Below, piece after piece: positions 2,854 to 60,711 of a stretch of 64,000 bases of DNA. The stretch is from an uncultured Bacteroidota bacterium (lineage in GTDB: Bacteria > Bacteroidota > Rhodothermia > Rhodothermales > DATKEJ01). Where the stretch lies: contig CAVYJC010000007.1 in assembly GCA_963768715.1 (NCBI GenBank), positions 79,466-143,465 of the forward strand. The letters run 5' to 3'. Both the position numbers and the translations under genes were made by a program. Every line of letters begins with the position of its first letter. The stretch's first letter is position 1. The notes beneath the pieces are model-generated. The model ran no database searches, had not been told where the DNA came from, and saw only the letters and a program-made list of their open reading frames with translations.

Positions 2854-3066
2854 CTACGGGCTGACATCCTCCTCATACGTCAGCCCAAACACCGTATCCG
2901 TCAGCCACTTCTTGAACGACTCGTTGTCGCTGAATTGCTTGAACAGCTGGCTGTCATCTTTCATGATAGCCAGCATGACTCGCCCTAAGGCCTTATCGTG
3001 CTCTATCCTGGCGTTTGCCTTGTCTGAGTTCTTTCGGGCGTTTTGATAGGCTGTATCGGCCGCCAC
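2854..3066 (-). pseudogene. Orphan C-terminal fragment of a type I restriction enzyme R subunit (HsdR, COG0610-type tail)
   Basis: The 70-aa ORF reads AYQNARKNSDKANARIEHDKALGRVMLAIMKDDSQLFKQFSDNESFKKWLTDTVFGLTYEE. This matches my memory of the conserved extreme C-terminus of roughly 1000-aa HsdR proteins. No helicase or nuclease part is present upstream, because the next gene ends 44 nt away. Confidence 0.6.
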
Positions 3067-3109
3067 TAATCTTCAAGGACCCTTTGCTTCCGACTCACAG
3101 GAAACGCCC

Positions 3110-3631
3110 TTACTTGTTTTCATCTGGGGAGTTTTCCAAACGAGAGGCATCAAAGTCCTTTTCAACGTTACGGAGAGCCGCCGTCACGTCGTCCAGATCA
3201 GCTTCCCAGATAACCCCATCAGCAAACCTAACTTTACTCACATAGGCAACCCCGGTATGAAAACTGAAGTCAGCGTATGAAGAAGAGACCCAAGTCCCCT
3301 TCCCGGTCTTTCCGGGACTCGTATCACTCATGTCTATTCCACCCGTCCTATCAAGGAATTCGTTGAAGATGCTAAACGAAACGAGGCCGATCTGACAAGC
3401 AACGATCTCTTTGTCGGACACATTCTGATACTCGACTGCATGATGGATTCCGTCCCTCGAATATGTACCCCCCTTTTGATAAGTGGCCACGTACTTAGTG
3501 ATCTTCATCGGCGCATCGGTCTGGCCAATGACGATCGACACAGGTTCTTGGGCTGTTGCCTCTGCGCGTAGATAGAGAATGGCCGACAGGGTGAGGACGG
3601 TTCGAAACATTACAAGCATGAACGTTTTCAT
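3110..3631 (-). CDS. Hypothetical secreted protein (signal peptide, no recognised domain)
   Basis: 173-aa ORF with N-terminus MKTFMLVMFRTVLTLSAILYLRAEATAQ. It is preceded by leader repeat copy A. Confidence 0.6.
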   Translation of the reverse strand: MKTFMLVMFRTVLTLSAILYLRAEATAQEPVSIVIGQTDAPMKITKYVATYQKGGTYSRDGIHHAVEYQNVSDKEIVACQIGLVSFSIFNEFLDRTGGIDMSDTSPGKTGKGTWVSSSYADFSFHTGVAYVSKVRFADGVIWEADLDDVTAALRNVEKDFDASRLENSPDENK

Positions 3632-5328: not shown

Positions 5329-5675
5329 GGTTTCTTTCCTCTAGTGGATTGGCTATTTCAACTTCACCACACCAGCCACCTTCCCCACAATCTTCAGATC
5401 AACCTCCAGGCCAGTGAGGCTTGATTAATACTTGTCGGCGGTGGTCATCCGTCAGCAAAAGATAGGCGAAATGTTGTTGACGACTGGTTCAGACCATGGA
5501 GACTCCCTTGAGCGACCGAAGGACATCGAGTGCGTGGTTGGCCCTCAACACGATTCGAAGATTCAGACAAAGTCAAGTGGCCCAGCCCCGAAACCTCAAC
5601 CAGGACCTTAAACCATATATAAAAGGCAATATCCATAACCAATTATGATTATGGGCCTTATATCGATGCTTCAAG

Positions 5676-5748
<73 letters not shown>

Positions 5749-5800
5749 TCGTAGGAACGAAGAATATAGGGAAGGCAACCGGGTTGCGACCAAGAGGTTT

Positions 5801-5843
5801 CGTGAATGAGGAATGAGAAATAATGAACGAGGAATGGCTTCCG
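5801..5843. repeat. Left inverted arm of heptamer units (GAATGAG GAATGAG AAATAAT GAACGAG GAATGG...) flanking the four-helix-bundle gene
   Basis: Aligned by hand to the reverse complement of 6304-6346 it gives 32/43 matches. The inner 21 nt match 20/21 (GAACGAGGAATGGCT[T/G]CCGC). Confidence 0.8.
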
Positions 5844-5863
5844 CCGGCTACTTTCAATCAGCC

Positions 5864-6235
5864 TCAGCGACCAATCTTCCGACGCTCGTTTCTCTTAGCT
5901 GTGCGTGCCGACGCAGCAAAAACGGCCAGAAGTTCATTTGCCTCGTGAATGAGGCTGTCCGCTGCGTCTCGCTTGGAGCAGCCTGAACTGACAATCAATT
6001 CCACCCAGTAGAGTGATTCCTCGAGCTCCTGAAGTGCCGTTTCAACCTTACTGATGAACTCCTTCCGCGATCGGGCTCGGCACGCCTCACTATAGTTGGC
6101 TCCAACCGAGGTTGCGCTCCTCACCAACTGCTGTCTTGCCGTTCGCATCAGAATGGTATCGGGCTCTGACTGCGCAAAATTGATTACGCCGAGACTGAAT
6201 TTGCGCGTCCTGTTCCGAAGATTCTCTCCCTTCAT
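5864..6235 (-). CDS. Four-helix-bundle protein (23S rRNA intervening-sequence protein family, TIGR02436/PF05635-like)
   Basis: From the Met at 6235 the protein reads MKGENLRNRTRKFSLGVINFAQS...QLVRSATSVGANYSEA...SRKEFISKVETALQELEESLYWVELI. These are the characteristic motifs as I remember the family. The 52-codon upstream extension in the track (to 6391) is translation of the repeat arm. Confidence 0.75.
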   Translation of the reverse strand: MKGENLRNRTRKFSLGVINFAQSEPDTILMRTARQQLVRSATSVGANYSEACRARSRKEFISKVETALQELEESLYWVELIVSSGCSKRDAADSLIHEANELLAVFAASARTAKRNERRKIGR

Positions 6236-6303
6236 GACCACCGGTTTACCACAAAGACACCTGACGGGCGAAATCATAACCTCCGCTTGGCCAAATAAAG
6301 GGA

Positions 6304-6346
6304 CGCGGCAGCCATTCCTCGTTCCGTATTCATTGTTCATCATTTC
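6304..6346. repeat. Right inverted arm of heptamer units flanking the four-helix-bundle gene
   Basis: Reverse complement of the 5801-5843 arm. A third partial copy (TCCTCGTTCCGTATTCA) lies at about 7362-7378. Confidence 0.8.
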
Positions 6347-6480
6347 AGTTCTCGATTGACACCTCTCCTCTTCACCCCCCCCAACAACCACAATAATCCA
6401 CCGCCCGGAACCGTTCTCTTCATAAAACCTTTACAATAGATACGCAAAGCCGCTCGCCCTCCAACTAACCGCGATTTGCC

Positions 6481-7137
6481 ATGGCCCTCCCCAATCGCCC
6501 CAACAAGTTTCGCCGGCTGTACCCGATCCTGATCGAGGTCGGATTCGTAGCATCCCTCCTCCTCGTCATCGGTGCGTTTCGAGCCAATTACCGGACCGAC
6601 ACAGGTCTTGATTTGACCAGTACGCCCATCGAGCCGATCGAGCTCGTCCCGATCGTTCCGACCAACATTACACCAAAACCGCCTCCCCCACCGATGCCGC
6701 CCGTTCCGGTTGAGGTGCCTAACGACGAAGTCCTCGACGACGAACCGATAGATATCGATTCGGAGATTCACATCAATGAAACGCCTCCCGTCCCGCCACC
6801 GCCGCCCCGAGTACCCACCGTGGACAACAGTCCAGGCGAAATCTTCGTCGTCGTCGAAGACTATCCGAAACCAATCGGCGGGATGGAAGGAATCATGCGT
6901 CGCCTCCAGTACCCCGAAATCGCCCGAAAAGCCGGCATCGAAGGACGTGTCACGGTTCAGTTCGTGATCGAGAAGGACGGAACCGTCTCGAATCCGCAGG
7001 TCCTCAAGGGCATCGGCGGCGGATGTGACGAAGCAGCAGTAAAAGCTATCCGCGATACGCGATTCACTCCGGGAATGCAACGAAAGAAACCCGTGAGGGT
7101 GAGGATGTCGATTCCCATCGTCTTTAAAATGAATTAG
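6481..7137 (+). CDS. TonB-family energy transducer (N-terminal anchor, Pro-rich spacer, TonB C-terminal domain)
   Basis: Has a TM segment (YPILIEVGFVASLLLVIGAF) and PKPPPPPMPPVP / PPVPPPPPRVP proline-rich tracts. The C-terminus is YPEIARKAGIEGRVTVQFVIEKDGTVSNPQVLKGIGGGCDEAAVKAI...RFTPG. Confidence 0.9.
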   Translation: MALPNRPNKFRRLYPILIEVGFVASLLLVIGAFRANYRTDTGLDLTSTPIEPIELVPIVPTNITPKPPPPPMPPVPVEVPNDEVLDDEPIDIDSEIHINETPPVPPPPPRVPTVDNSPGEIFVVVEDYPKPIGGMEGIMRRLQYPEIARKAGIEGRVTVQFVIEKDGTVSNPQVLKGIGGGCDEAAVKAIRDTRFTPGMQRKKPVRVRMSIPIVFKMN

Positions 7138-7178
7138 GATTGAGGATTGAGGATTGAGGATTGAGGATTGAGTATTGG
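7137..7178. repeat. (GGATTGA)x5 plus one degenerate unit, starting on the last base of the tonB stop codon
   Basis: Counted directly: perfect units at 7137, 7144, 7151, 7158 and 7165, then GTATTGG. Confidence 0.95.
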
Positions 7179-7231
7179 GGGCATTGCCACTCTTCCTCGC
7201 CTCCGGTCCCGCAGTGAGGGCTCACCCCTGC

Positions 7232-7386
7232 TGTTTGACTGTTTGCTGTTTGCTGTTTGCTGTTTGCTGTTTGGTATTTGCTGTTTGGTATTTGCTGTTT
7301 GGTATTTGGTGTTTGGTATTTGGTGTTTGGTATTTGGTGTTTGGTATTTGGTATTTCCGTTCCTCGTTCCGTATTCAGCATTCATC
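7232..7386. repeat. Heptanucleotide tandem array of about 22 units (T[G/A]TTTG[C/G] core)
   Basis: Sixteen perfectly phased units run from 7240 to 7351. The same 7-nt register continues through TATTTCC GTTCCTC GTTCCGT ATTCAGC ATTCATC to 7386. Confidence 0.95.
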
Positions 7387-7448
7387 GCCCTCCGCTCCGT
7401 ACATTGCTGCCTTGTTGTCATTTCGTCACCAGGTTGTAAGGCATCCCC

Positions 7449-8276
7449 GTGGGTAAGGAGACCAGCAAGAGCCAACGTTTGACGCCCGAGCTGTATCAAC
7501 AGGAATTGATCAAGCTCCAGGAAGAGTTGGTCATGCTGCAGGAGCACATTCGAAGAAAAGGCCTCCGCGTGGCGGTCATCTTCGAAGGACGCGACGCATC
7601 CGGGAAAGGCGGCGTCATTAAGCGGATCACGCAGCGACTCAATCCGCGAGTCGTGAGAGTCGTGGCGCTGGGTGTGCCTACGGAACGCGAGGTCGGAGAG
7701 TGGTACTTCCAGCGATATGCCCCGCACCTGCCGGCTGCAGGGGAAATGGTACTCTTCGACCGCAGTTGGTACAACCGCGCCGGCGTGGAACGCGTGATGG
7801 GATTCTGCACCGACAATCAGTATCGCGAGTTCCTTCGCTCATGCCCAGAATTCGAACGGATGCTGGTCCGGTCGGGCATCACGCTGATCAAGTACTGGTT
7901 CTCGATCAGCGCCGAGGAGCAACAGCGCAGGCTCGAGCAGCGCATGCGGGACCCAAAACGACGCTGGAAGATCAGCGACATTGATCTCGAGTCACGACGC
8001 CGATGGGTCGATTATTCGCGCGCCAAAGACGCCATGATGATGTACACAGACATCGACGTCGCTCCCTGGTACGTTGTCGACGCCGATCACAAGAAGGCGG
8101 CACGATTGAACTGCATGCACCACCTGGTCAGCCAGATTGACTACGATCATCTTGCGCCGGATCCCGTGGAAATTCCTGAGATTCGGGAGGATCCCGGGTA
8201 TCGTCGCCCGCCGATCGACAGCCAGAAGTGGGTGCCGGCTGTTTACGGAAGAAGCAAGAAGCGGAATGAGGAGTGA
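7449..8276 (+). CDS. ppk2: Polyphosphate kinase 2 (PPK2 family)
   Basis: Contains FEGRDASGKGGVIKRITQRLNPR (Walker A) and WYFQRYAPHLPAAGEMVLFDRSWYNRAGVERVMGF, typical of the PPK2 core. It has a GTG start. Confidence 0.9.
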   Translation: MGKETSKSQRLTPELYQQELIKLQEELVMLQEHIRRKGLRVAVIFEGRDASGKGGVIKRITQRLNPRVVRVVALGVPTEREVGEWYFQRYAPHLPAAGEMVLFDRSWYNRAGVERVMGFCTDNQYREFLRSCPEFERMLVRSGITLIKYWFSISAEEQQRRLEQRMRDPKRRWKISDIDLESRRRWVDYSRAKDAMMMYTDIDVAPWYVVDADHKKAARLNCMHHLVSQIDYDHLAPDPVEIPEIREDPGYRRPPIDSQKWVPAVYGRSKKRNEE

Positions 8277-8319
8277 GGAGTGAGAATCGTTAATTCTTTG
8301 CTAATCGCTAATTGCTGAA
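8264..8319. repeat. Heptamer array (GAATGAG GAGTGAG GAGTGAG AATCGTT AATTCTT TGCTAAT CGCTAAT TGCTGAA) beginning inside the last codons of ppk2
   Basis: Counted directly in a 7-nt register. The ppk2 stop TGA (8274-8276) lies inside unit 2. Confidence 0.85.
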
Positions 8320-8411
8320 TGCCACGTTCCACCATGCCGGTCGCCAGTGGCCGGAAGTCGCTCCGCGTTCATCATCCGTCTTCGCTTTCCCATCGTTCGA
8401 GCTTCCCCGCG

Positions 8412-9188
8412 ATGAATTCATCATTCATCGTTCTCCTCGTCCTCATGTCGTACGTGCCCGCCCTGGCGCAGGACGGAAATCGGTTCGTGAGATGGACCTT
8501 CCAGGACGGTTTGAACCTCATCGCCCACAAAACGCCCACCATGCTCCTTCTCGGCGCCGGTGGCGCGGTCATCATCGCCGGAGGGGCACAGGTGGATAAA
8601 GACATCAGCGAGGAGGTCCAGAAGCAGTTCGACGGCCACGAATTCTACCTCTCCGCCGCGAATGCGCTGGGTACGCCGCCCGCCGTGCTCGGACCGGTCG
8701 CTCTCTTCGGTCTGTCCACTGCGATCGGGAACCGGCGCCTGCAGGACGCCGCGTTTACCTCGCTTGAGGCCATCGCGTATGCGGGCACTACCACGCTCGT
8801 CGCGAAAGAGGTGATCGGACGCTATCGACCCGCCGACAGTGAGGGCGCGAAGAAGTTCGATCCTTTCTCCGGCAATACGTCGACTCCCAGCGGACATGCA
8901 ACCATCGTCTTTGCCATGTTCACGCCTTTCGTGTACTACTATCCACATCCTGCGACGTACGCACTCTTTGCTGTGGGAGTCACCACCGATTTGGCCCGCA
9001 TCGCGCTCAACCGGCACTGGTCTTCCGACGTCGTCGTGGGCAGCGGTATCGGTTTCCTCATGGCGCGGTATCTGTCAAGACGGCACTTGTCTGAGGCGGC
9101 CGTCAGTTCGGCGGTCTCGATCACGCCGCTTATTTCGCCGAACGCCGCGGGGGTGCATCTGACCCTGGCGCTCAATCGACCGCAGTAG
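8412..9188 (+). CDS. PAP2-superfamily phosphatase (secreted or membrane-associated)
   Basis: The signal-like start MNSSFIVLLVLMSYVPALAQ is at 8412. PAP2 motifs are present: KEVIGRYRP, PSGHAT and SDVVVGSGIG. The upstream extension to 8319 is unlikely. Confidence 0.8.
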   Translation: MNSSFIVLLVLMSYVPALAQDGNRFVRWTFQDGLNLIAHKTPTMLLLGAGGAVIIAGGAQVDKDISEEVQKQFDGHEFYLSAANALGTPPAVLGPVALFGLSTAIGNRRLQDAAFTSLEAIAYAGTTTLVAKEVIGRYRPADSEGAKKFDPFSGNTSTPSGHATIVFAMFTPFVYYYPHPATYALFAVGVTTDLARIALNRHWSSDVVVGSGIGFLMARYLSRRHLSEAAVSSAVSITPLISPNAAGVHLTLALNRPQ

Positions 9189-9230
9189 GTTCGGGGTTCG
9201 GGGTTCGATGTTCGCGACTTGGGGTTCGGT
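9189..9230. repeat. Heptamer array GTTCGGG GTTCGGG GTTCGAT GTTCGCG ACTTGGG GTTCGGT immediately after the PAP2 stop codon
   Basis: Counted directly. The first unit starts 1 nt after TAG (9186-9188). Confidence 0.9.
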
Positions 9231-12994: not shown

Positions 12995-13071
12995 ACTTCA
13001 AATACCAAACTTCAGACACCGAATATTGGTCCGGGGTTCGCACCCCGCACCCCGCACCCCGCACTTCGCAC
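12995..13071. repeat. Heptamer array of 11 units that changes flavour while keeping register (ACTTCAA ATACCAA ACTTCAG ACACCGA ATATTGG TCCGGGG TTCGCAC CCCGCAC x3 TTCGCAC)
   Basis: Counted directly. The first 20 nt are identical to 21131-21150. Confidence 0.9.
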
Positions 13072-17446: not shown

Positions 17447-18205
17447 TCAGTGCCGCCGCAGATTCTGCTGCGTGAACGTTCCGGAATCGATGTCCTGATT
17501 GAACGTCACGTCGCGAATCTGAAGAATTGTCTGGTTCCCCGGCTTCTTCTCTTCGGAAAGGATCATCCGCGCGGGGATCACGCGGCCGCCCATATCCTTG
17601 ATATCCTCGAAGATGAGCGTCCGAATCAGCTCTTCCCGCTCGTTGTAGTACTCGGCCCGCATGGGCACATAGTCACCGACGCGAATCCACTCCACGACGT
17701 GCGACCAGGTGACCGGGGCATCCGGCTTTGCCTTCAGGTCGAGGACCCACGTCGAATCGCCTCGAAGCGTATCGGTTCGAAGCAGGGTGTGCTCGTAGTC
17801 GTGAACGATGCTCGACTCTTTGACCAGATCGTCGTTCGTAAAATCGGAGCCCATCCATGACTGCATCATCATGGACGGCGGGATCTTGATGACGCGATTG
17901 ATGCGCGGCACGAACTGCCACATTTCGCGTCCGATCTTGAGAAAGCTCGTGCCACGATGGCGGGCCGGATCGAGAATCTCGATAAATGACTTCTCCGTTC
18001 CCTCCGACCAGAACTCGAACACCATTTCGCGCTGCCAGTCGGGCCGGACCACTGTCATGGATTCCGTGCCGTGTTGGGTCTTTCCACGCGTCAGTTGGTC
18101 GGCGCGCGTGATGATCTCTGTCGCCGTCGGTTGCGAAAGCACGTCTACGGCCGTAGCGAGAACAAGGGCCAGAAGCAGCCAGAAGATCCTGGGTACCTGA
18201 TCCAT
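17447..18205 (-). CDS. Outer-membrane lipoprotein-sorting (LolA-like) protein
   Basis: Signal peptide plus ...SFLKIGREMWQFVPRINRVIKIPPSMMMQSWMGSDFTNDDL, a motif I associate with the LolA-like family encoded next to such ABC systems. Confidence 0.75.
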   Translation of the reverse strand: MDQVPRIFWLLLALVLATAVDVLSQPTATEIITRADQLTRGKTQHGTESMTVVRPDWQREMVFEFWSEGTEKSFIEILDPARHRGTSFLKIGREMWQFVPRINRVIKIPPSMMMQSWMGSDFTNDDLVKESSIVHDYEHTLLRTDTLRGDSTWVLDLKAKPDAPVTWSHVVEWIRVGDYVPMRAEYYNEREELIRTLIFEDIKDMGGRVIPARMILSEEKKPGNQTILQIRDVTFNQDIDSGTFTQQNLRRH

Positions 18206-18510
18206 TACGATTTGGAGTCGATTTGCAGTTGTACGCCGCGTTGGGCGAGAGCCTGAATCTACGAGGCGCGAGGTCGTCGGTTACCAACTTCGCAGAAGTT
18301 CCATATGAGCGCAGAGCGGCTTGAGCGCAGAGCGCAGAGGGAGAGCGGGTCGCCGCCACGCAATTTGCGTTTTGCATCCGTCTACGCACGATGTCATCTC
18401 GCTTCGCCGGACCGGTGGCTCTCATGATTGAATTGCGCCGAAACTCACGCAAAGTCCGCAAATACCCGGTAGATCCCTTCGAGTCCGGCACGTACCCTTC
18501 AACGGAGGAT

Positions 18511-18566
18511 CATTCTGCATTCTGAACTCTGAATTAATTCTTAATTCTTAATTATTAATTACTTGC
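18511..18566. repeat. AT-rich heptamer array (CATTCTG CATTCTG AACTCTG AATTAAT TCTTAAT TCTTAAT TATTAAT TACTTGC) abutting the HPS-like gene start
   Basis: Counted directly in a 7-nt register. Confidence 0.85.
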
Positions 18567-20351: not shown

Positions 20352-21131
20352 ATGGAGCTCAAGGACAAGGCAATTATCGTAACGGGAAGTACGACGGGTA
20401 TTGGCCGGGCCATCGCTCGACGGTGCGTGACGGAAGGCGCCAATGTGCTGATCCACGGACGAAACGAAAAGGCCGCCCGGGAGCTGGAGGCCGAACTCGC
20501 CCCGCACGCGATGGTCCACATCGATGACCTGGCTGATCCGCAGGCGCCGGGTCGCATCGTAGCTGCCGCCCAGCGGGCCTTTGGAAAGCTCGACTGCATC
20601 GTGAACAATGCGGCATTTATCGTTCGAGGGGACATCAGGACGACCGACGCGGCGCTCTTCGATCGCCTGATGGCGACCAATGTGCGGGCCCCTTTACTCC
20701 TGATCCAGGCCGGTCTCGACCTGCTGGCGGCCTCGAAAGGCTGCGTGCTGAACATCGGCTCGATCAACGCCTACTGCGGCGAGTCGGCGATGCTGCCGTA
20801 CAGCGTTTCGAAGGGAGCGCTGATGACGCTGTCGAGAAATCTTGGCGATGCGCTGCATTTGGAGTATGGCGTGCGCGTGAACCACTTTAACGTCGGGTGG
20901 GTGCTAACCGAAAACGAGCACCGTTATAAGATCGAGGACGGTTTGCCGGAGGACTGGCCTTCGCGCCTGCCTCACGAGGTCAATCCATCGGGAACGCTAA
21001 TCAGCCCGGAAACGATCGCTACGGCCGCCGTCTTCTGGTTGAGCGATGCTTCGCGTCCCATCAGCAGCTCGGTGGTGGAGCTGGAGCAGTGGCCGCTTAT
21101 TGGGAGGAATCTGCCAAAAGATGTCGAATAA
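20352..21131 (+). CDS. Short-chain dehydrogenase/reductase (SDR)
   Basis: Contains TGSTTGIGRAIA, NNAA and YSVSKGAL (YxxxK). Confidence 0.9.
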   Translation: MELKDKAIIVTGSTTGIGRAIARRCVTEGANVLIHGRNEKAARELEAELAPHAMVHIDDLADPQAPGRIVAAAQRAFGKLDCIVNNAAFIVRGDIRTTDAALFDRLMATNVRAPLLLIQAGLDLLAASKGCVLNIGSINAYCGESAMLPYSVSKGALMTLSRNLGDALHLEYGVRVNHFNVGWVLTENEHRYKIEDGLPEDWPSRLPHEVNPSGTLISPETIATAAVFWLSDASRPISSSVVELEQWPLIGRNLPKDVE

Positions 21132-21405
21132 CTTCAAATACCAAACTTCAAATACCAAATATGGCGGCAGGCATGTTCAATGGGTTAGCCTTGGCGATAT
21201 CTGAAAATCCCCTCTCGCCGGGACTGATCGTTATCGGCAAAGGAGAAGTTCGGTGTTTGAAGTTTGGTGTTTGGTGTTGGCCGTTGCACGTTCAAGTCTG
21301 GCGTTTGCAGTTTGACGTTTGCAGTTTCCCAGTCCCGTGCGGGTATACCGCTACTGATATTTGCTGCTACTGATATTTGCTGTTTGATATTTGATATTTG
21401 AAGTG
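21131..21405. repeat. Composite heptamer-repeat spacer with dyad symmetry
   Basis: (ACTTCAAATACCAA)x2 lies at 21131-21158 and its approximate complement GGTGTTTGAAGTTTGGTGTTTGGTGTTGG at 21252-21280. GTTTGCA/GTTTGAC units lie at 21303-21327. CTACTGATATTTGCTG x2 plus TTTGATATTTGATATTTGAAGTG lies at 21351-21405. Confidence 0.85.
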
Positions 21406-22786: not shown

Positions 22787-23047
22787 GTCCGGGAGCTGCC
22801 CCGAACAGGCGAGCACGGGTTCTGAGATACCAGCAGGCGTGTCTGTCGCCCGGAGGGGTCCGTGGTCCGTGGTCCGGTAGCCCGAATTGCTGCCAGGCAG
22901 TGATCACGGACCATTCCAGTTTTTGCAATAACGGAATACACCGTTGGCATGCCTCCAGAACCACTTCGCTCGTGAATCCCGACTTCGGTCAGTTCGTCTG
23001 AAAACTGCAGTGGGCCCGGCATCCGAAACACCGGGAGTCTCAAACCA

Positions 23048-30903: not shown

Positions 30904-31743
30904 ATGACCACTGGCCCCCGCATCATCCTCAATACCATCGCCCTCGAGCCGAACCGCTGGACGGCCGACAAAGTCCCCTATTTCCGGCTTATCGATCTGC
31001 TGCCGGCGATTGCCCGGCATGGATTCGAGGCTTTGGAAATCTGGCAGTACCACGTTGACCGTCTGTCTGAATCGGAATTGGACGATCTCCGTTCCGCTAT
31101 GGAATCACTCGGAATCGAGGCGCCGGTACTCGGCATCTACCCACGACTCGACCTAGACGAGGACCAACGTCTTAAAGAGCTCTCGAACATCGAGCGGCTT
31201 CTCGACACGGCCCAGTTTCTGGGCGCCGGAATGGTCAAACTGTTCGTCGGCGCGGTGGCGAGCGGGCGTCTGGACACGAAGGGTACGGACCGATCCATCG
31301 CCTTTCTGGAAGAAATGAGCAATCTCGCCAGTGAGAGGGATATCAGGCTGACGGGCGAGACACACGCCAATACACTTTTCGACACGGTCGCATCGACCCT
31401 CCGAACTCTGGAGCGTCTCGACGCCACTCATTTTGGCGTGTGCTTCCAGCCGTATGATGCCAATCTCCCCGGAGCCATAGGAGCCTTCACAGCACTGCGC
31501 GAACGGATCTGGCACCTGCACTTTCAGGGACGAAAAGACGGCGCCATCAGTCTGCTGGAGGAAGCCGATCTGGACTACGGCAGCTACACGCGATTCGTCG
31601 CTGAGTCAGGATTCGAGGGCAACCTTTGCATCGAGTTCGTCAAAGATTGCGTCGTGGCATCACCTGAACTGCTGGATGTTGAACGGGTGCTGGCGAATGC
31701 TGTCGAGGACAGGCAATTCGTTGAGACACATCTTGGGAGATAA
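30904..31743 (+). CDS. Sugar phosphate isomerase/epimerase (xylose-isomerase-like TIM barrel)
   Basis: 279 aa containing GFEALEIW, VKLFVG, GETHANTLFD and CIEF. Confidence 0.75.
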   Translation: MTTGPRIILNTIALEPNRWTADKVPYFRLIDLLPAIARHGFEALEIWQYHVDRLSESELDDLRSAMESLGIEAPVLGIYPRLDLDEDQRLKELSNIERLLDTAQFLGAGMVKLFVGAVASGRLDTKGTDRSIAFLEEMSNLASERDIRLTGETHANTLFDTVASTLRTLERLDATHFGVCFQPYDANLPGAIGAFTALRERIWHLHFQGRKDGAISLLEEADLDYGSYTRFVAESGFEGNLCIEFVKDCVVASPELLDVERVLANAVEDRQFVETHLGR

Positions 31744-31962
31744 CAGCAAACACCAAACATCAAATACCAAACTTCTGGTGGTCGGCAGCACTGAGGTCGG
31801 GCGCTGCATCACATCTAGATACTTGCGGACATCAGAACCAATCGTTTTGGTTAACTAGAACGATCGGTTCCGTCGTCCCGCACGATAAAGATGAATTCGG
31901 TGCCTGACCCAGTGACAATGCCGACCACCCGATATTTGGTATTTGATGTTTGGTGTTTGCTG
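31744..31962. repeat. Hairpin element filling the convergent spacer: perfect 28-bp terminal inverted repeats built of heptamer units
   Basis: CAGCAAACACCAAACATCAAATACCAAA lies at 31744-31771. Its exact reverse complement, TTTGGTATTTGATGTTTGGTGTTTGCTG, lies at 31935-31962. The partly complementary inner segments are GGTGGTCGGC and GCCGACCACC. Confidence 0.95.
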
Positions 31963-31969
31963 TTGGACG

Positions 31970-43498: not shown

Positions 43499-43527
43499 AC
43501 CTGACAGGTTTTCAAAACCTGTCAGGT
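43499..43527. repeat. ACCTGWCAGGT element, cluster A (two 11-mers, 7-nt spacer TTTCAAA)
   Basis: ACCTGACAGGT lies at 43499-43509 and ACCTGTCAGGT at 43517-43527. With flanks it forms a 14-bp-stem hairpin, 43497-43529. Confidence 0.9.
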
Positions 43528-44166: not shown

Positions 44167-44245
44167 ACGATCTGCGTTGGTGCAGGTCAGGTGACGCGAG
44201 GGCGGCAGCCGGGAAACCGGGGCCGCCCTTGTCGTTTGTTGAAAA

Positions 44246-44274
44246 ACCTGACAGGTTTTCAAAACCCGTCAGGT
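44246..44274. repeat. ACCTGWCAGGT element, cluster B (two 11-mers, spacer TTTCAAA, one mismatch)
   Basis: ACCTGACAGGT lies at 44246-44256 and ACCCGTCAGGT at 44264-44274. Confidence 0.9.
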
Positions 44275-44354
44275 TTGCCAAGTTGTGGCTTCCGGACGTA
44301 ACGTGTCGCCGCCAGTCGTAACAAACGCGGCGCCGGTTGGTCGTCGCCAATGCG

Positions 44355-45923
44355 ATGGAATCTGAATCCGCCCAAACTGACGGCACGAACGAGACGGGAA
44401 ACCAGACGATCGTCATCGATCATCTCTTCGGGTTCCATCGCGGATCCCGGCAGCTCGTGGCCGGAGACCGGATCACTATCGGATCGTCATCAAACGCTAC
44501 GATCCACTTCCCGGCCGCCCATGAGCCGGCCGTCGCACCCCACCACGCTGCGATTGTCCGCCACGACGGCGTCTGCGAGCTCATAGTCGCGGACGGCGAG
44601 CATGCCCAAGTCAACGGAATCGAGACGACTCGGCACCTCCTGAGTTCTGGCGACGTCATCGTCGTCGGTGCGCACGGCCCGGTGCTGAGATTCCGCGTGT
44701 ATGATGGTATCCGAAATAAATACAAGACTATACCTGAAGCCATTGCCGATTGTCGGGACAGTGCAAGGCATCAGAAGAACTCCGTTGTCGGACGAGCAAT
44801 CGCCTTCATCAGGGCGATGCCTCATGAGATGCTTCGCCAGACAGCCCCGTGGACCAGAAAGATGTCCTTCGCCCTGACCACGCTGCTCGTCTTCAGTACG
44901 ATCTATCTCGTCGTTCGAAGCTTCCAATTGGCAGGGGAGCTAGACGAGCAGGCGGAGCAGGTCCTTTCGCTCATCCAAGCCAACGACGAATCGATGACCA
45001 ACGATGAGCTGCGAGTCCTCCAGAGTGAGCTGGAGTCGAAGCTCTCGACTACCCTTGAGCGTGTCGAGGCGCTCGAGGCACTGACGGCGGCAGGCAGGAA
45101 GGTCGTGGCCTCATCTGCCGAATCGGTGATGCTCCTCCAGGGTGAATACGGATTCGTCGGACCCGAAGGGCGGGAGCTCAGATTCGTTATCACCCCGGGC
45201 GGACAGCCGCTGATGGATCGCAAGGGGTATCCCGTCGTTCGCCCTGACGGCACGGGCGAACCGTACCGAAGTCAGTTTACCGGAACCGGGTTTCTGGTAA
45301 GCTCCGGAGGTCTGGTGATAACCAACCGGCACGTGGCCGCCCCGTGGGAATTCGAGCCCAGCGCCGTCGCCGTACTCAGCATGGGATACCAGCCGGTGAT
45401 GAACCGAATGATCGGATATTTCCCCAACGTCTCGAAAGCATTCGACATCAAGCTCGTCCTGGGTAGCTCTACCGAGGATCTGGCACTCCTGCGTTGCGAG
45501 GGCGACCCGAAAGACATCCCACCGCTCCAACTCGCTGACGCGTCCGTCTCCCCCGGCGACGAGGTCATCGTCCTTGGCTATCCGACCGGCATTCGGGCCC
45601 TCCTCGCTCGAACCGACCTGCACTTTGTGAATCAACTTCTCGAGGAGAGCAAGCGAGACTTCTGGTACATCGCAAGGCGTCTGTCTGAGGAGGGGCGCAT
45701 CGCACCGCTAGCCACGAGGGGAATTGTCGGCCAGGTAACCCCAACCGCCGTCGTTTACGATGCGGAAACGACACACGGAGGCAGCGGAGGACCCGTGATG
45801 TCCCTGAGCGGAGAGGTCGTGGCCATCAACACAGCGATCCTGACAGATTTCGGCGGTTCGAACCTGGGCGTCCCAGTCGACGCCGCCCGCCGCCTCCTCG
45901 ATCTGGCAACGCGGCCGGAGTGA
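44355..45923 (+). CDS. FHA domain - TM helix - coiled coil - trypsin-like (S1C/DegP-type) serine protease
   Basis: FHA region: ITIGSSSNATIHFPA...HAAIVRHDGVCELIVADGEHAQVNGIE...LSSGDVIVVG. TM helix: MSFALTTLLVFSTIYLVVRSF. The stretch ELDEQAEQVLSL...LESKLSTTLERVEALEAL is heptad-like. Protease triad contexts: TNRHVA, DLALLR and THGGSGGPV. Confidence 0.8.
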   Translation: MESESAQTDGTNETGNQTIVIDHLFGFHRGSRQLVAGDRITIGSSSNATIHFPAAHEPAVAPHHAAIVRHDGVCELIVADGEHAQVNGIETTRHLLSSGDVIVVGAHGPVLRFRVYDGIRNKYKTIPEAIADCRDSARHQKNSVVGRAIAFIRAMPHEMLRQTAPWTRKMSFALTTLLVFSTIYLVVRSFQLAGELDEQAEQVLSLIQANDESMTNDELRVLQSELESKLSTTLERVEALEALTAAGRKVVASSAESVMLLQGEYGFVGPEGRELRFVITPGGQPLMDRKGYPVVRPDGTGEPYRSQFTGTGFLVSSGGLVITNRHVAAPWEFEPSAVAVLSMGYQPVMNRMIGYFPNVSKAFDIKLVLGSSTEDLALLRCEGDPKDIPPLQLADASVSPGDEVIVLGYPTGIRALLARTDLHFVNQLLEESKRDFWYIARRLSEEGRIAPLATRGIVGQVTPTAVVYDAETTHGGSGGPVMSLSGEVVAINTAILTDFGGSNLGVPVDAARRLLDLATRPE

Positions 45924-45928
45924 AAGAA

Positions 45929-45975
45929 ACCTGACAGGTTTTGAAAACCTGTCAGGTCTTGAAGCCCTGTCTGGT
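45929..45975. repeat. ACCTGWCAGGT element, cluster C (three 11-mers at 18-nt period)
   Basis: ACCTGACAGGT lies at 45929, ACCTGTCAGGT at 45947 and the degenerate CCCTGTCTGGT (9/11) at 45965. Spacers are TTTGAAA and CTTGAAG. Confidence 0.85.
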
Positions 45976-60620: not shown

Positions 60621-60711
60621 AATTAATAATTAAGGATTAAGGATTAAGAATTAAGAATTAAGAATTAAGAATTAAGAATGAGTAGTCATTAGTGATTAAT
60701 GGGGATTGCTG
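60621..60711. repeat. AT-rich heptamer array (AATTAAT AATTAAG GATTAAG x2 AATTAAG x4, then degenerate units)
   Basis: Eight well-phased units run from 60621 to 60676. The register continues through AATGAGT AGTCATT AGTGATT AATGGGG ATTGCTG. Confidence 0.9.

Follow-up and report, generated by a model that had tools for sequence, protein, structure and literature searches.

Inverted heptad arrays enclose a four-helix-bundle gene in a Rhodothermales genome and recur around genes of the same family in other phyla

In a 64,000-nucleotide stretch of contig CAVYJC010000007.1 from an uncultured Rhodothermales bacterium of the phylum Bacteroidota (GCA_963768715.1; the whole stretch is referred to below as the window), we find that the gene for a 123-amino-acid (aa) four-helix-bundle protein is enclosed by two inverted arms built of seven-nucleotide units (heptads). 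Arms of this kind surround the majority of the genes we surveyed from the same family, TIGR02436/PF05635, in at least 12 phyla. We propose, at a probability of about one-half, that gene and arms form a discrete unit, a cassette in which a TIGR02436 gene lies between inverted arrays with the heptad core G-A-W-T-K-N-N, and that this cassette represents, outside ribosomal genes, the same kind of element as the S23p-type intervening sequence (IVS) of 23S rRNA genes. An earlier reading of the window, made from its letters alone (the sequence-only reading), had suggested that the gene and its heptamer arms constitute a unit linking the protein family to the repeats, and the survey described here bears this out.

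The family is found in most bacterial phyla and its structures have been solved since 2006–2007, with no function assigned outside retroelements. A conserved nucleic-acid partner, namely inverted arrays that have a common core, consist of some five heptads, and lie beside the gene in at least 12 phyla, furnishes the first directly testable hypothesis for the binding target of these proteins. It also joins two separate literatures, on heptanucleotide repeats and on S23p/Avd-like proteins, and offers an origin for the open reading frame (ORF)-bearing IVSs of 23S rRNA, namely a general cassette that can be placed in any transcript since its ends pair. It further suggests why the cassette is tolerated in essential operons, such as at murD-ftsW in Flavobacterium. 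In practice, heptad arms can disrupt assemblies or be taken for repeats of another class.

A four-helix-bundle gene between inverted heptad arms

A repeat search of the window placed the arms at 5805–5844 and 6305–6344, 40 nt each and separated by 460 nt, with 32 of 40 positions complementary (80%). Scored from flank to flank, the inverted repeat of the cassette reaches 20 (z 18.8 against 30 shuffles), and Tandem Repeats Finder reports a period of 7 at 5804–5836. The sequence-only reading had drawn 43-bp arms at 5801–5843 and 6304–6346. At exactly those positions the register is 2 nt off and 6 of 43 nucleotides match; the arms themselves are real and the count of 32 matching positions was correct, and it is their ends that needed correction. 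The same reading had described a near-perfect inner match of 20/21, which we measure as 19/20 over a block, GAACGAGGAATGGCT(T/G)CCGC, that is not heptad-like.

The whole unit spans 546 bp, with the gene, its leader and its trailing spacer all on the reverse strand. In gene sense it opens with the 5′ arm (6305–6344), which reads GAATGAT GAACAAT GAATACG GAACGAG GAATGGC and then TGCCGC or, in another phase, AATGATG AACAATG AATACGG AACGAGG AATGGCTGCCGC. A 69-nt leader (6236–6304) separates this arm from the ATG of the gene (5864–6235, 123 codons plus stop), and 19 nt (5845–5863) lie between the stop codon and the 3′ arm (5805–5844). The latter is the complement of the 5′ arm; on the forward strand it carries heptads of the GAATGAG type, and its inner end is the block GGCTTCCGC. 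The four-helix-bundle gene is, as had been claimed, the only one between the arms.

Its product matches PF05635 (E 3.4e-16, 59.8 bits against a cutoff of 33.8) and TIGR02436 (79.1 bits, cutoff 24). AlphaFold2 predicts four helices, at residues 3–23, 28–52, 57–84, and 89–122, with a pLDDT of 94.8. A Foldseek search with this model retrieved BT_0352 (2RLD; E 1.8e-5, TM 0.83), Xcc0516 (2GSC; TM 0.85), and the retroelement protein Avd (4DWL; TM 0.81), and TM values across these structures and the Avd structure 8UB7 range from 0.80 to 0.86. By sequence search, 2RLD is found at E 9e-14, and identity to Avd is just 12–14%. As deposited, 2RLD, 2GSC, and 4DWL hold five chains each. The composition of the protein is basic (22 K+R versus 15 D+E), and the family to which it belongs is large, with 8,438 clusters at 50% identity matching at E ≤ 1e-3. 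A separate observation concerns P0241, a protein of 1,759 aa in which 14 separate stretches match residues 67–99 of the four-helix bundle, making it a repeat protein of one helix-pair segment.

Heptad arms recur around genes of the family

Because the window holds many other heptamer arrays, the family was surveyed at large. The survey took one genome per species and relatives at 39–51% identity, and comprised 80 loci among the matches listed, all from species other than that of the window, 72 of them usable. These derive from at least 12 phyla, including Acidobacteriota, Chloroflexota, Bacteroidota, Planctomycetota, Desulfobacterota, Verrucomicrobiota (with Kiritimatiellae and Lentisphaerae), Patescibacteria, Nitrospirota, Nitrospinota, Methylomirabilota, Armatimonadota, Cyanobacteriota, Bacillota, and Calditrichota. 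Inverted flanks, defined by an inverted-repeat score of at least 13 between the 150-nt flanks, were present at 69% of the 72 loci, compared with 0.6% of 499 shifted pseudo-genes in the same loci (p 2e-25) and, as a second control, 2.6% of 152 other real genes. A heptad array occupied at least one flank at 88% of the loci (7% of controls) and both flanks at 53% (0.2%). Period-7 arrays reached a density of 0.87 per kb in the 200-nt flanks, about 19-fold above the 0.045 per kb found elsewhere in the same loci, and periods other than 7 were essentially absent from the array counts in the surveyed loci.

The arms have more in common than their period. The best period is 7 in 51 of 54 arms, the others being two octamers and one nonamer, and phase alignment of the 5′ arm units yields the consensus A (46/51), W, T (44/51), K, N, N, G (45/51), that is, G-A-W-T-K-N-N; examples are GATTGCA, GATTTTA, GAATGAT, GGAGTGC, and GAAGGAT. 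G exceeds C in the 5′ arm at 51 of 54 loci (29.5% G and 10% C in the arrays) and, because the arms are inverted, the G-rich, C-poor array reads inward to the gene on both strands. The median arm is 31.5 nt long. Five units per 5′ arm is the commonest number (24/72), followed by four (16/72).

The arms also lie close to the gene they enclose and to the genes beyond. From the end of the 5′ arm to the ATG the median distance is 29 nt, often 0–10 nt, and from the stop codon to the 3′ arm it is 15.5 nt. Upstream, the neighboring gene is co-directional in 62 of 70 cases, at a median gap of 59 nt; downstream, the figures are 54 of 67 and 52 nt. Typically the arms fill the entire gap between host genes, which implies co-transcription.

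Variants of the arrangement include a second G-type array past the stop codon, which folds with the C-type array into a compact hairpin (L001, L164/165, L042, and L020), a hairpin module on both sides (L026 and L058), a single arm, and tandem cassettes (L070). The cassette of the metagenome contigs L164 (560–640) and L165 (790–870) is the same in both except for its 3′ array, which has about 8 ATTACTC units in the one and about 11 in the other, a case of slippage in copy number among closely related strains. Past several cassettes, a co-directional tRNA gene (Asn, Arg, or Phe) follows at 25–120 nt, as at L010 (2812–2885), L049 (3398–3472), L001, L002, and 5675–5748 of the window. Enrichment of tRNA genes beside cassettes is unconvincing, at 2 of 60 scanned loci.

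Arm type follows the protein lineage

Protein distance and heptad distance are correlated among the surveyed loci (Mantel r 0.49, p ≤ 5e-4), and the result is the same with G+C content partialled out. Restricted to cross-phylum pairs, r is −0.37 (p 3e-4), and protein identity declines from 60% between loci with identical heptads to 49% between those with four to five heptad differences. The correlation, holding across phyla as it does, indicates that the type of arm is a property of the cassette lineage, as opposed to the host or the site. Such a shared history would result from co-inheritance or co-transfer of gene and arms, and equally from co-adaptation of protein and heptad.

Presence, probable loss, and replacement of the cassette in relatives

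The sequence-only reading had proposed comparing orthologous loci for presence or absence of the unit, and such cases exist. At the murD-ftsW site in the cell-division cluster of Flavobacterium, five genomes carry a cassette (L012, L025, L056, L075, and L082, at about 2900–3420) whose arms reach from the murD stop codon to the ftsW start codon, and three species lack the gene. In F. hydatis, the site holds a hairpin of about three GTTTAAG units, in F. crassostreae it holds TTTTAGATT-tgt-AATCTAAA, and in F. lacustre a degenerate trace is all that is present. The hairpins of F. hydatis and F. crassostreae consist of one to three heptad-like units similar to those of the cassettes. Species with the cassette fall on both sides of the deepest split among those compared (FtsW 75% identical), their cassette proteins are 75–86% identical, and no target-site duplication is evident in the comparison of occupied with empty sites. 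The simplest history is that of an old resident cassette that descended vertically and was followed by later loss of the gene, leaving a hairpin. On this history, gene-less heptad hairpins can be derivatives of the cassette.

Turnover of another kind is seen among relatives of the window genome. The cassette of the window is bordered downstream by a co-directional tRNA-Phe(GAA) gene (5675–5748, reverse strand), 116 nt past the stop codon, and upstream by a divergent TonB_C gene (6481–7137, assigned by profile match). The same tRNA lies at the cassette site of the Rhodothermales relatives L001 (3870–5690) and L002 (700–2400), each of which carries two cassettes, one on either side of TonB. Between L001 and L002, the first cassette gene is 100% identical, TonB 95.7%, and the flanks 96–100%, and the cassettes on the tRNA-Phe side lie in opposite orientation and are 71% identical (62% in protein). 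The window gene occupies the tRNA-Phe site and groups with the copy that lies on the PAP2 side in the relatives (69% versus 52% identity). Together, the three genomes point to replacement or relocation of the cassette via its arms. A search for TonB orthologs from metagenomes returned distant relatives only (at most 42–48% identity).

The PAP2-side site of the window contains arrays only, among them a solo copy of the cassette's own 5′ arm. A (GATTGAG)x6 array on the forward strand (7136–7177) starts at the stop codon of TonB; it fits the G-A-W-T-K-N-N core and is a candidate for the opposite end of a cassette site that has lost its contents. Beyond it, a (TTTGCTGTTTGGTA)x8 array of the RTTTGNT unit type (7234–7356, forward strand), without a gene, adjoins the solo arm (7352–7383), at the position where the relatives have their second cassette beside PAP2. 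This paralogous arm copy agrees with the cassette 5′ arm over about 26 of 32 positions by eye. A 17-mer is exact between 6316–6332 and 7361–7377 (the sequence-only reading had noted this gene-less copy at 7362–7378), and the full exact stretch is 18 nt, TTCCTCGTTCCGTATTCA, at 7360–7377. The 64-kb window thus contains one PF05635 gene and one 18-nt solo arm. By synteny with the PAP2 gene of L001, the ORF at 8319–9188 is taken as PAP2. In L001 itself, an octamer array, (AGTCTGCA) x 23.5 with 96% identity, lies at 2914–3101 between an unannotated gene and PAP2.

A proposed RNA stem or, possibly, an array of DNA sites

We suggest that on transcription of the host operon, or of the cassette itself, the arms would pair into a stem of 30–40 bp that closes off the ORF. 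When the sense transcript of the window cassette is folded, the minimum-free-energy and centroid structures both pair the two arms (z −3.15). Such a stem would make an insertion tolerable in operons, beside tRNAs, and inside rRNA and, by analogy with rRNA IVSs, it would probably be cut by RNase III. Conservation of the GAWTK core exceeds what pairing needs and argues for a factor that reads the sequence, for which the encoded protein is the obvious candidate. This basic and probably pentameric protein may bind the heptad arms, with about five heptads for five protomers, in the service of autoregulation, processing, or propagation; the agreement between the number of heptads and the five-fold protein is suggestive. 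Spread and turnover of the cassette would probably proceed by recombination at arm homology and not by a transposase.

Several observations weigh against this proposal. About 30% of the surveyed loci have one arm only, or have direct instead of inverted arrays. The window itself is rich in arrays, with at least 15 intergenic heptamer arrays that have no four-helix-bundle gene. In the Flavobacterium orthologs there is no clear concerted or compensatory change of the arms, within-cassette similarity being 24.8 against 23.5–23.9 between species. Mismatches between arms display no wobble bias (54 of G:U type and 56 of A:C type), and so give no evidence of selection for base pairing in the sense RNA. 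Lastly, the upstream neighbor of the window cassette is divergent, such that the 5′ arm would be transcribed only if the start site lay more than 110 nt before the ATG.

The arms may instead act at the level of DNA. On that explanation, which we regard as possible but rather doubtful, the arms are arrays of duplex-DNA binding sites for the four-helix-bundle protein or for a host factor, comparable to iterated transposon-end sites or heptad operators, with a role in recombination, inversion, transposition, or transcriptional autoregulation, and RNA pairing is incidental. The equal numbers of G:U and A:C mismatches and the conservation of the core beyond the needs of pairing agree with it, as do the symmetric inward polarity at 51 of 54 loci, which is that of transposon ends, and the history shared by gene and arms across phyla. 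So do the flipping and replacement of a cassette between strains whose flanks are 96–100% identical, the solo arm 1 kb away, and the affinity of the window gene with the copy at the relatives' other site. Against a DNA-level role, the cassette encodes no transposase or recombinase, no target-site duplication is evident in Flavobacterium, and the cassette there tracks host divergence, with apparent vertical descent and losses. Moreover, the strong embedding in co-directional operons is a prediction of constraint on the transcript, and the experiments available for homologs all concern RNA, namely RNase III cutting of IVS stems and binding of Avd to an RNA stem-loop.

Gene-less arrays of the window and the question of mobility

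The sequence-only reading had gone further, proposing that gene and arms may be the autonomous form of a mobile or IVS-like element and that two ORF-less inverted pairs in the window (21130–21405 and 31742–31964) may be its miniature derivatives, akin to miniature inverted-repeat transposable elements. The pairs exist. The first (21130–21159 and 21249–21278) matches at 25 of 30 positions; the second (31742–31787 and 31919–31964) is a 46-nt repeat that matches at 43 of 46 positions and encloses about 130 nt between two convergent genes. Gene-less, heptad-like hairpins at the exact cassette site in sister Flavobacterium species give the idea of derivatives some support, and further support comes from the compact hairpins of G-arm, loop, and C-arm beside cassettes in L001, L026, L058, L164, and L165. 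A further point in favor is that GGGAATC arrays form 70 convergent pairs, without a family gene, in X. campestris (PMC4692102).

The two window pairs themselves speak otherwise. Their C-rich arm comes first, opposite to the order in 51 of 54 cassettes, and their unit is RTTTGNT as opposed to GAAYRNN in the cassette. They begin at the stop codons of ordinary genes, in the manner of terminator-type hairpins, and no remnant of a family gene was detectable in or beside them (all E > 0.09). The two pairs are thus, by their polarity and unit, probably not deletion derivatives of the cassette, and they belong to the broader population of heptad arrays in this genome. As to autonomous mobility, which finds no support here, the four-helix-bundle protein is the only ORF of the cassette, no transposase is encoded in it, and helical bundles of 120 aa are not known to act as catalysts of mobility. 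No target duplication was found, and the Flavobacterium pattern, apparently vertical with losses, fits gene deletion better than transposition. An autonomous element with miniature derivatives is accordingly an unlikely explanation.

Among the gene-less arrays of the window are those at 7136–7177, 7234–7356, 8263–8284, 9188–9229, 13037–13071, 18307–18561, 21130–21401, 22857–22876, 31742–31964, and 60621–60679. Their units include GATTGAG, RTTTGNT, AATTAAG, GGAGTGA, and others, and many of them start at a stop codon or end near a start codon; their number marks the genome as unusually rich in arrays. No other gene of the family, nor a remnant of one, was found in the 64-kb window; a 35-aa fragment at 18201–18305, beside an array, was considered as a gene remnant and dropped (7.4 bits, E 0.45, or 0.098 on rescan). 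That slippage created intergenic heptamer microsatellites, two of which happen to flank a small gene, could draw on the abundance of such arrays in the window, nearly all without a family gene, and on the over-representation of heptamers in bacteria attributed to Mrazek 2007 in the papers that cite it (PMC4679880 and PMC4692102), but is very improbable given arms that are specifically complementary, down to 19 of 20 positions in an inner block that is not heptad-like, an architecture found at 69% of family loci in which heptad arrays are otherwise rare (0.045 per kb), and an arm type that follows the protein lineage.

Surroundings of the window cassette

In the roughly 3 kb around the cassette, the neighboring genes that were scanned encode zinc-ribbon, TonB_C, and PPK2 proteins, and tRNA-Phe is a further neighbor. 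No reverse transcriptase is among them, and 5600–6500 contains no long direct repeat, which sets the locus apart from diversity-generating retroelements. With Rfam 15, no rRNA was detected in 5500–7600, where tRNA-Phe is the only match, and the cassette hence does not lie inside a 23S rRNA gene; Rfam 15 likewise returned nothing besides the tRNA for the window region, and nothing at the gathering score in 20 cassette loci. The cassette matched no PADLOC model of anti-phage defense, and a sigma-70 promoter scan of the cassette region located no promoter.

The leader between 5′ arm and ATG includes a motif, GGTTAYG...(A/G)GTGTCT...AAAC, that is common to the Rhodothermales relatives (window 6236–6304; L001 3905–4000 and 5211–5270; L003 3907–4000; L165 287–383). 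It is specific to this lineage and a candidate promoter or RNA element. Within this motif, the window leader has GCCCGTCAGGTGTCT at 6254–6269. Its CCCGTCAGGT is shared with ACCTGACAGGT palindromes at 43.5–46 kb, a resemblance that we set aside as coincidence, the relatives conserving GTGTCT and not the palindrome.

Those palindromes form a pattern of their own. Perfect copies of ACCTGACAGGT occur as three doublets, 18 nt apart, at 43499–43527, 44243–44276, and 45927–45975, and 34-nt palindrome copies (94%) bracket a gene at 44337–45923 for a protein with FHA and trypsin-like protease domains. The pattern has 17 matches, versus 3.2 expected, and is not heptad in character. The palindromes look like operator sites of a local regulon.

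Relation to known systems

We rate the conserved heptad code around family genes as a new finding, and the IVS ORF, its stem, cleavage by RNase III, and heptamer repeats as already established. In the open-access literature, we found no paper that links free-standing family genes to inverted heptad arrays, and an earlier report is possible. More broadly, and tentatively, we speculate that TIGR02436 proteins act as pentamers and recognize the sequence of the G-A-W-T-K-N-N arrays to which they bind. If so, the gene flanked by two inverted arms of five heptads would represent a cross-phylum class of cassette, embedded in operons and so far unrecognized. This cassette would be the progenitor of S23p-type IVSs of 23S rRNA and the free-living ancestor from which Avd was recruited, and it would have given rise to, or would work together with, the heptanucleotide arrays found in Xanthomonas (GGGAATC), in cyanobacteria (STRR, GGGGAYT), and in the present genome.

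The closest known counterpart is the S23p-type IVS, and the link to such elements anticipated by the sequence-only reading fits what has been described in Coxiella. There, the 23S IVS carries an S23p ORF and a 28-bp stem of terminal inverted repeats that is cut by RNase III, and two to three tandem GACAGAT heptamers, whose copy number depends on the strain, precede the ORF, as noted in 2016 (PMC4990558). Excision of IVSs by RNase III has been shown for Coxiella and Leptospira (PMC4990558), and that paper cites earlier work on IVSs with S23p ORFs by Ralph & McClelland 1993. The cassette and the IVS thus share a protein family, terminal inverted repeats able to form a stem (around an insert of about 430–760 nt in the IVS), and tandem heptamers ahead of the ORF; the IVS is moreover regarded as a selfish insert tolerated by the host transcript. 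They differ in that the window cassette lies between tRNA-Phe and a TonB-like gene and not in rRNA, where the IVS occupies helix 9, 25, or 45 of the 23S gene, that the cassette arms consist wholly of heptads with a core common across phyla, and that cutting by RNase III, shown for the IVS, is inferred for the cassette.

Heptanucleotide repeats have been described as GGGAATC in Xanthomonas and GGGGA(T/C)T in Nostoc (PMC4692102), as TAACTGA in Beggiatoaceae (PMC4679880), and as the STRR of cyanobacteria, and have been treated as G-quadruplex formers or possible translational signals, without a link to a protein family (PMC4692102). One four-unit GGGAATC array nonetheless overlaps the start codon of XCC0516, the gene for structure 2GSC, 6 nt from bccP (PMC4692102, supplementary file 2, repeat #15). 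Like the cassette arms, these repeats are intergenic tandem heptamers that often adjoin start or stop codons, their rotated units GAATCGG and ATTGGGG fit the same core, and a varying copy number finds its parallel in L164 and L165. Most published arrays have no family gene nearby, whereas the cassette arrays are a matched pair around one gene family.

Avd offers a precedent for binding of a structured nucleic acid. It has the same fold, belongs to a related family, and is a basic pentameric barrel (4DWL and 8UB7; PMC10053308), and all five protomers of the pentamer contact an 11-bp RNA stem-loop (bioRxiv 10.1101/2023.10.23.563531). Family genes have also been found wedged into cas operons (PMC3936711). 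The retroelement RNA, too, has a duplex between the sequences flanking its template. In contrast, the surroundings of the cassette gene lack a reverse transcriptase as well as template and variable repeats, and the RNA ligand of Avd is not a heptad array.

Two further systems bear comparison with the cassette. Correia elements of Neisseria are short inserts with inverted ends that are co-transcribed with host genes and whose paired ends are RNase III substrates; unlike the cassette, they lack an ORF and do not end in tandem repeats, and they occur as many near-identical copies with target duplications. The Omega repressor of plasmid pSM19035 is a small protein that reads consecutive 7-bp units, direct or inverted, on duplex DNA, as the cassette protein might read its arms, but it is an unrelated ribbon-helix-helix protein that recognizes the heptad WATCACW in a promoter-operator context.

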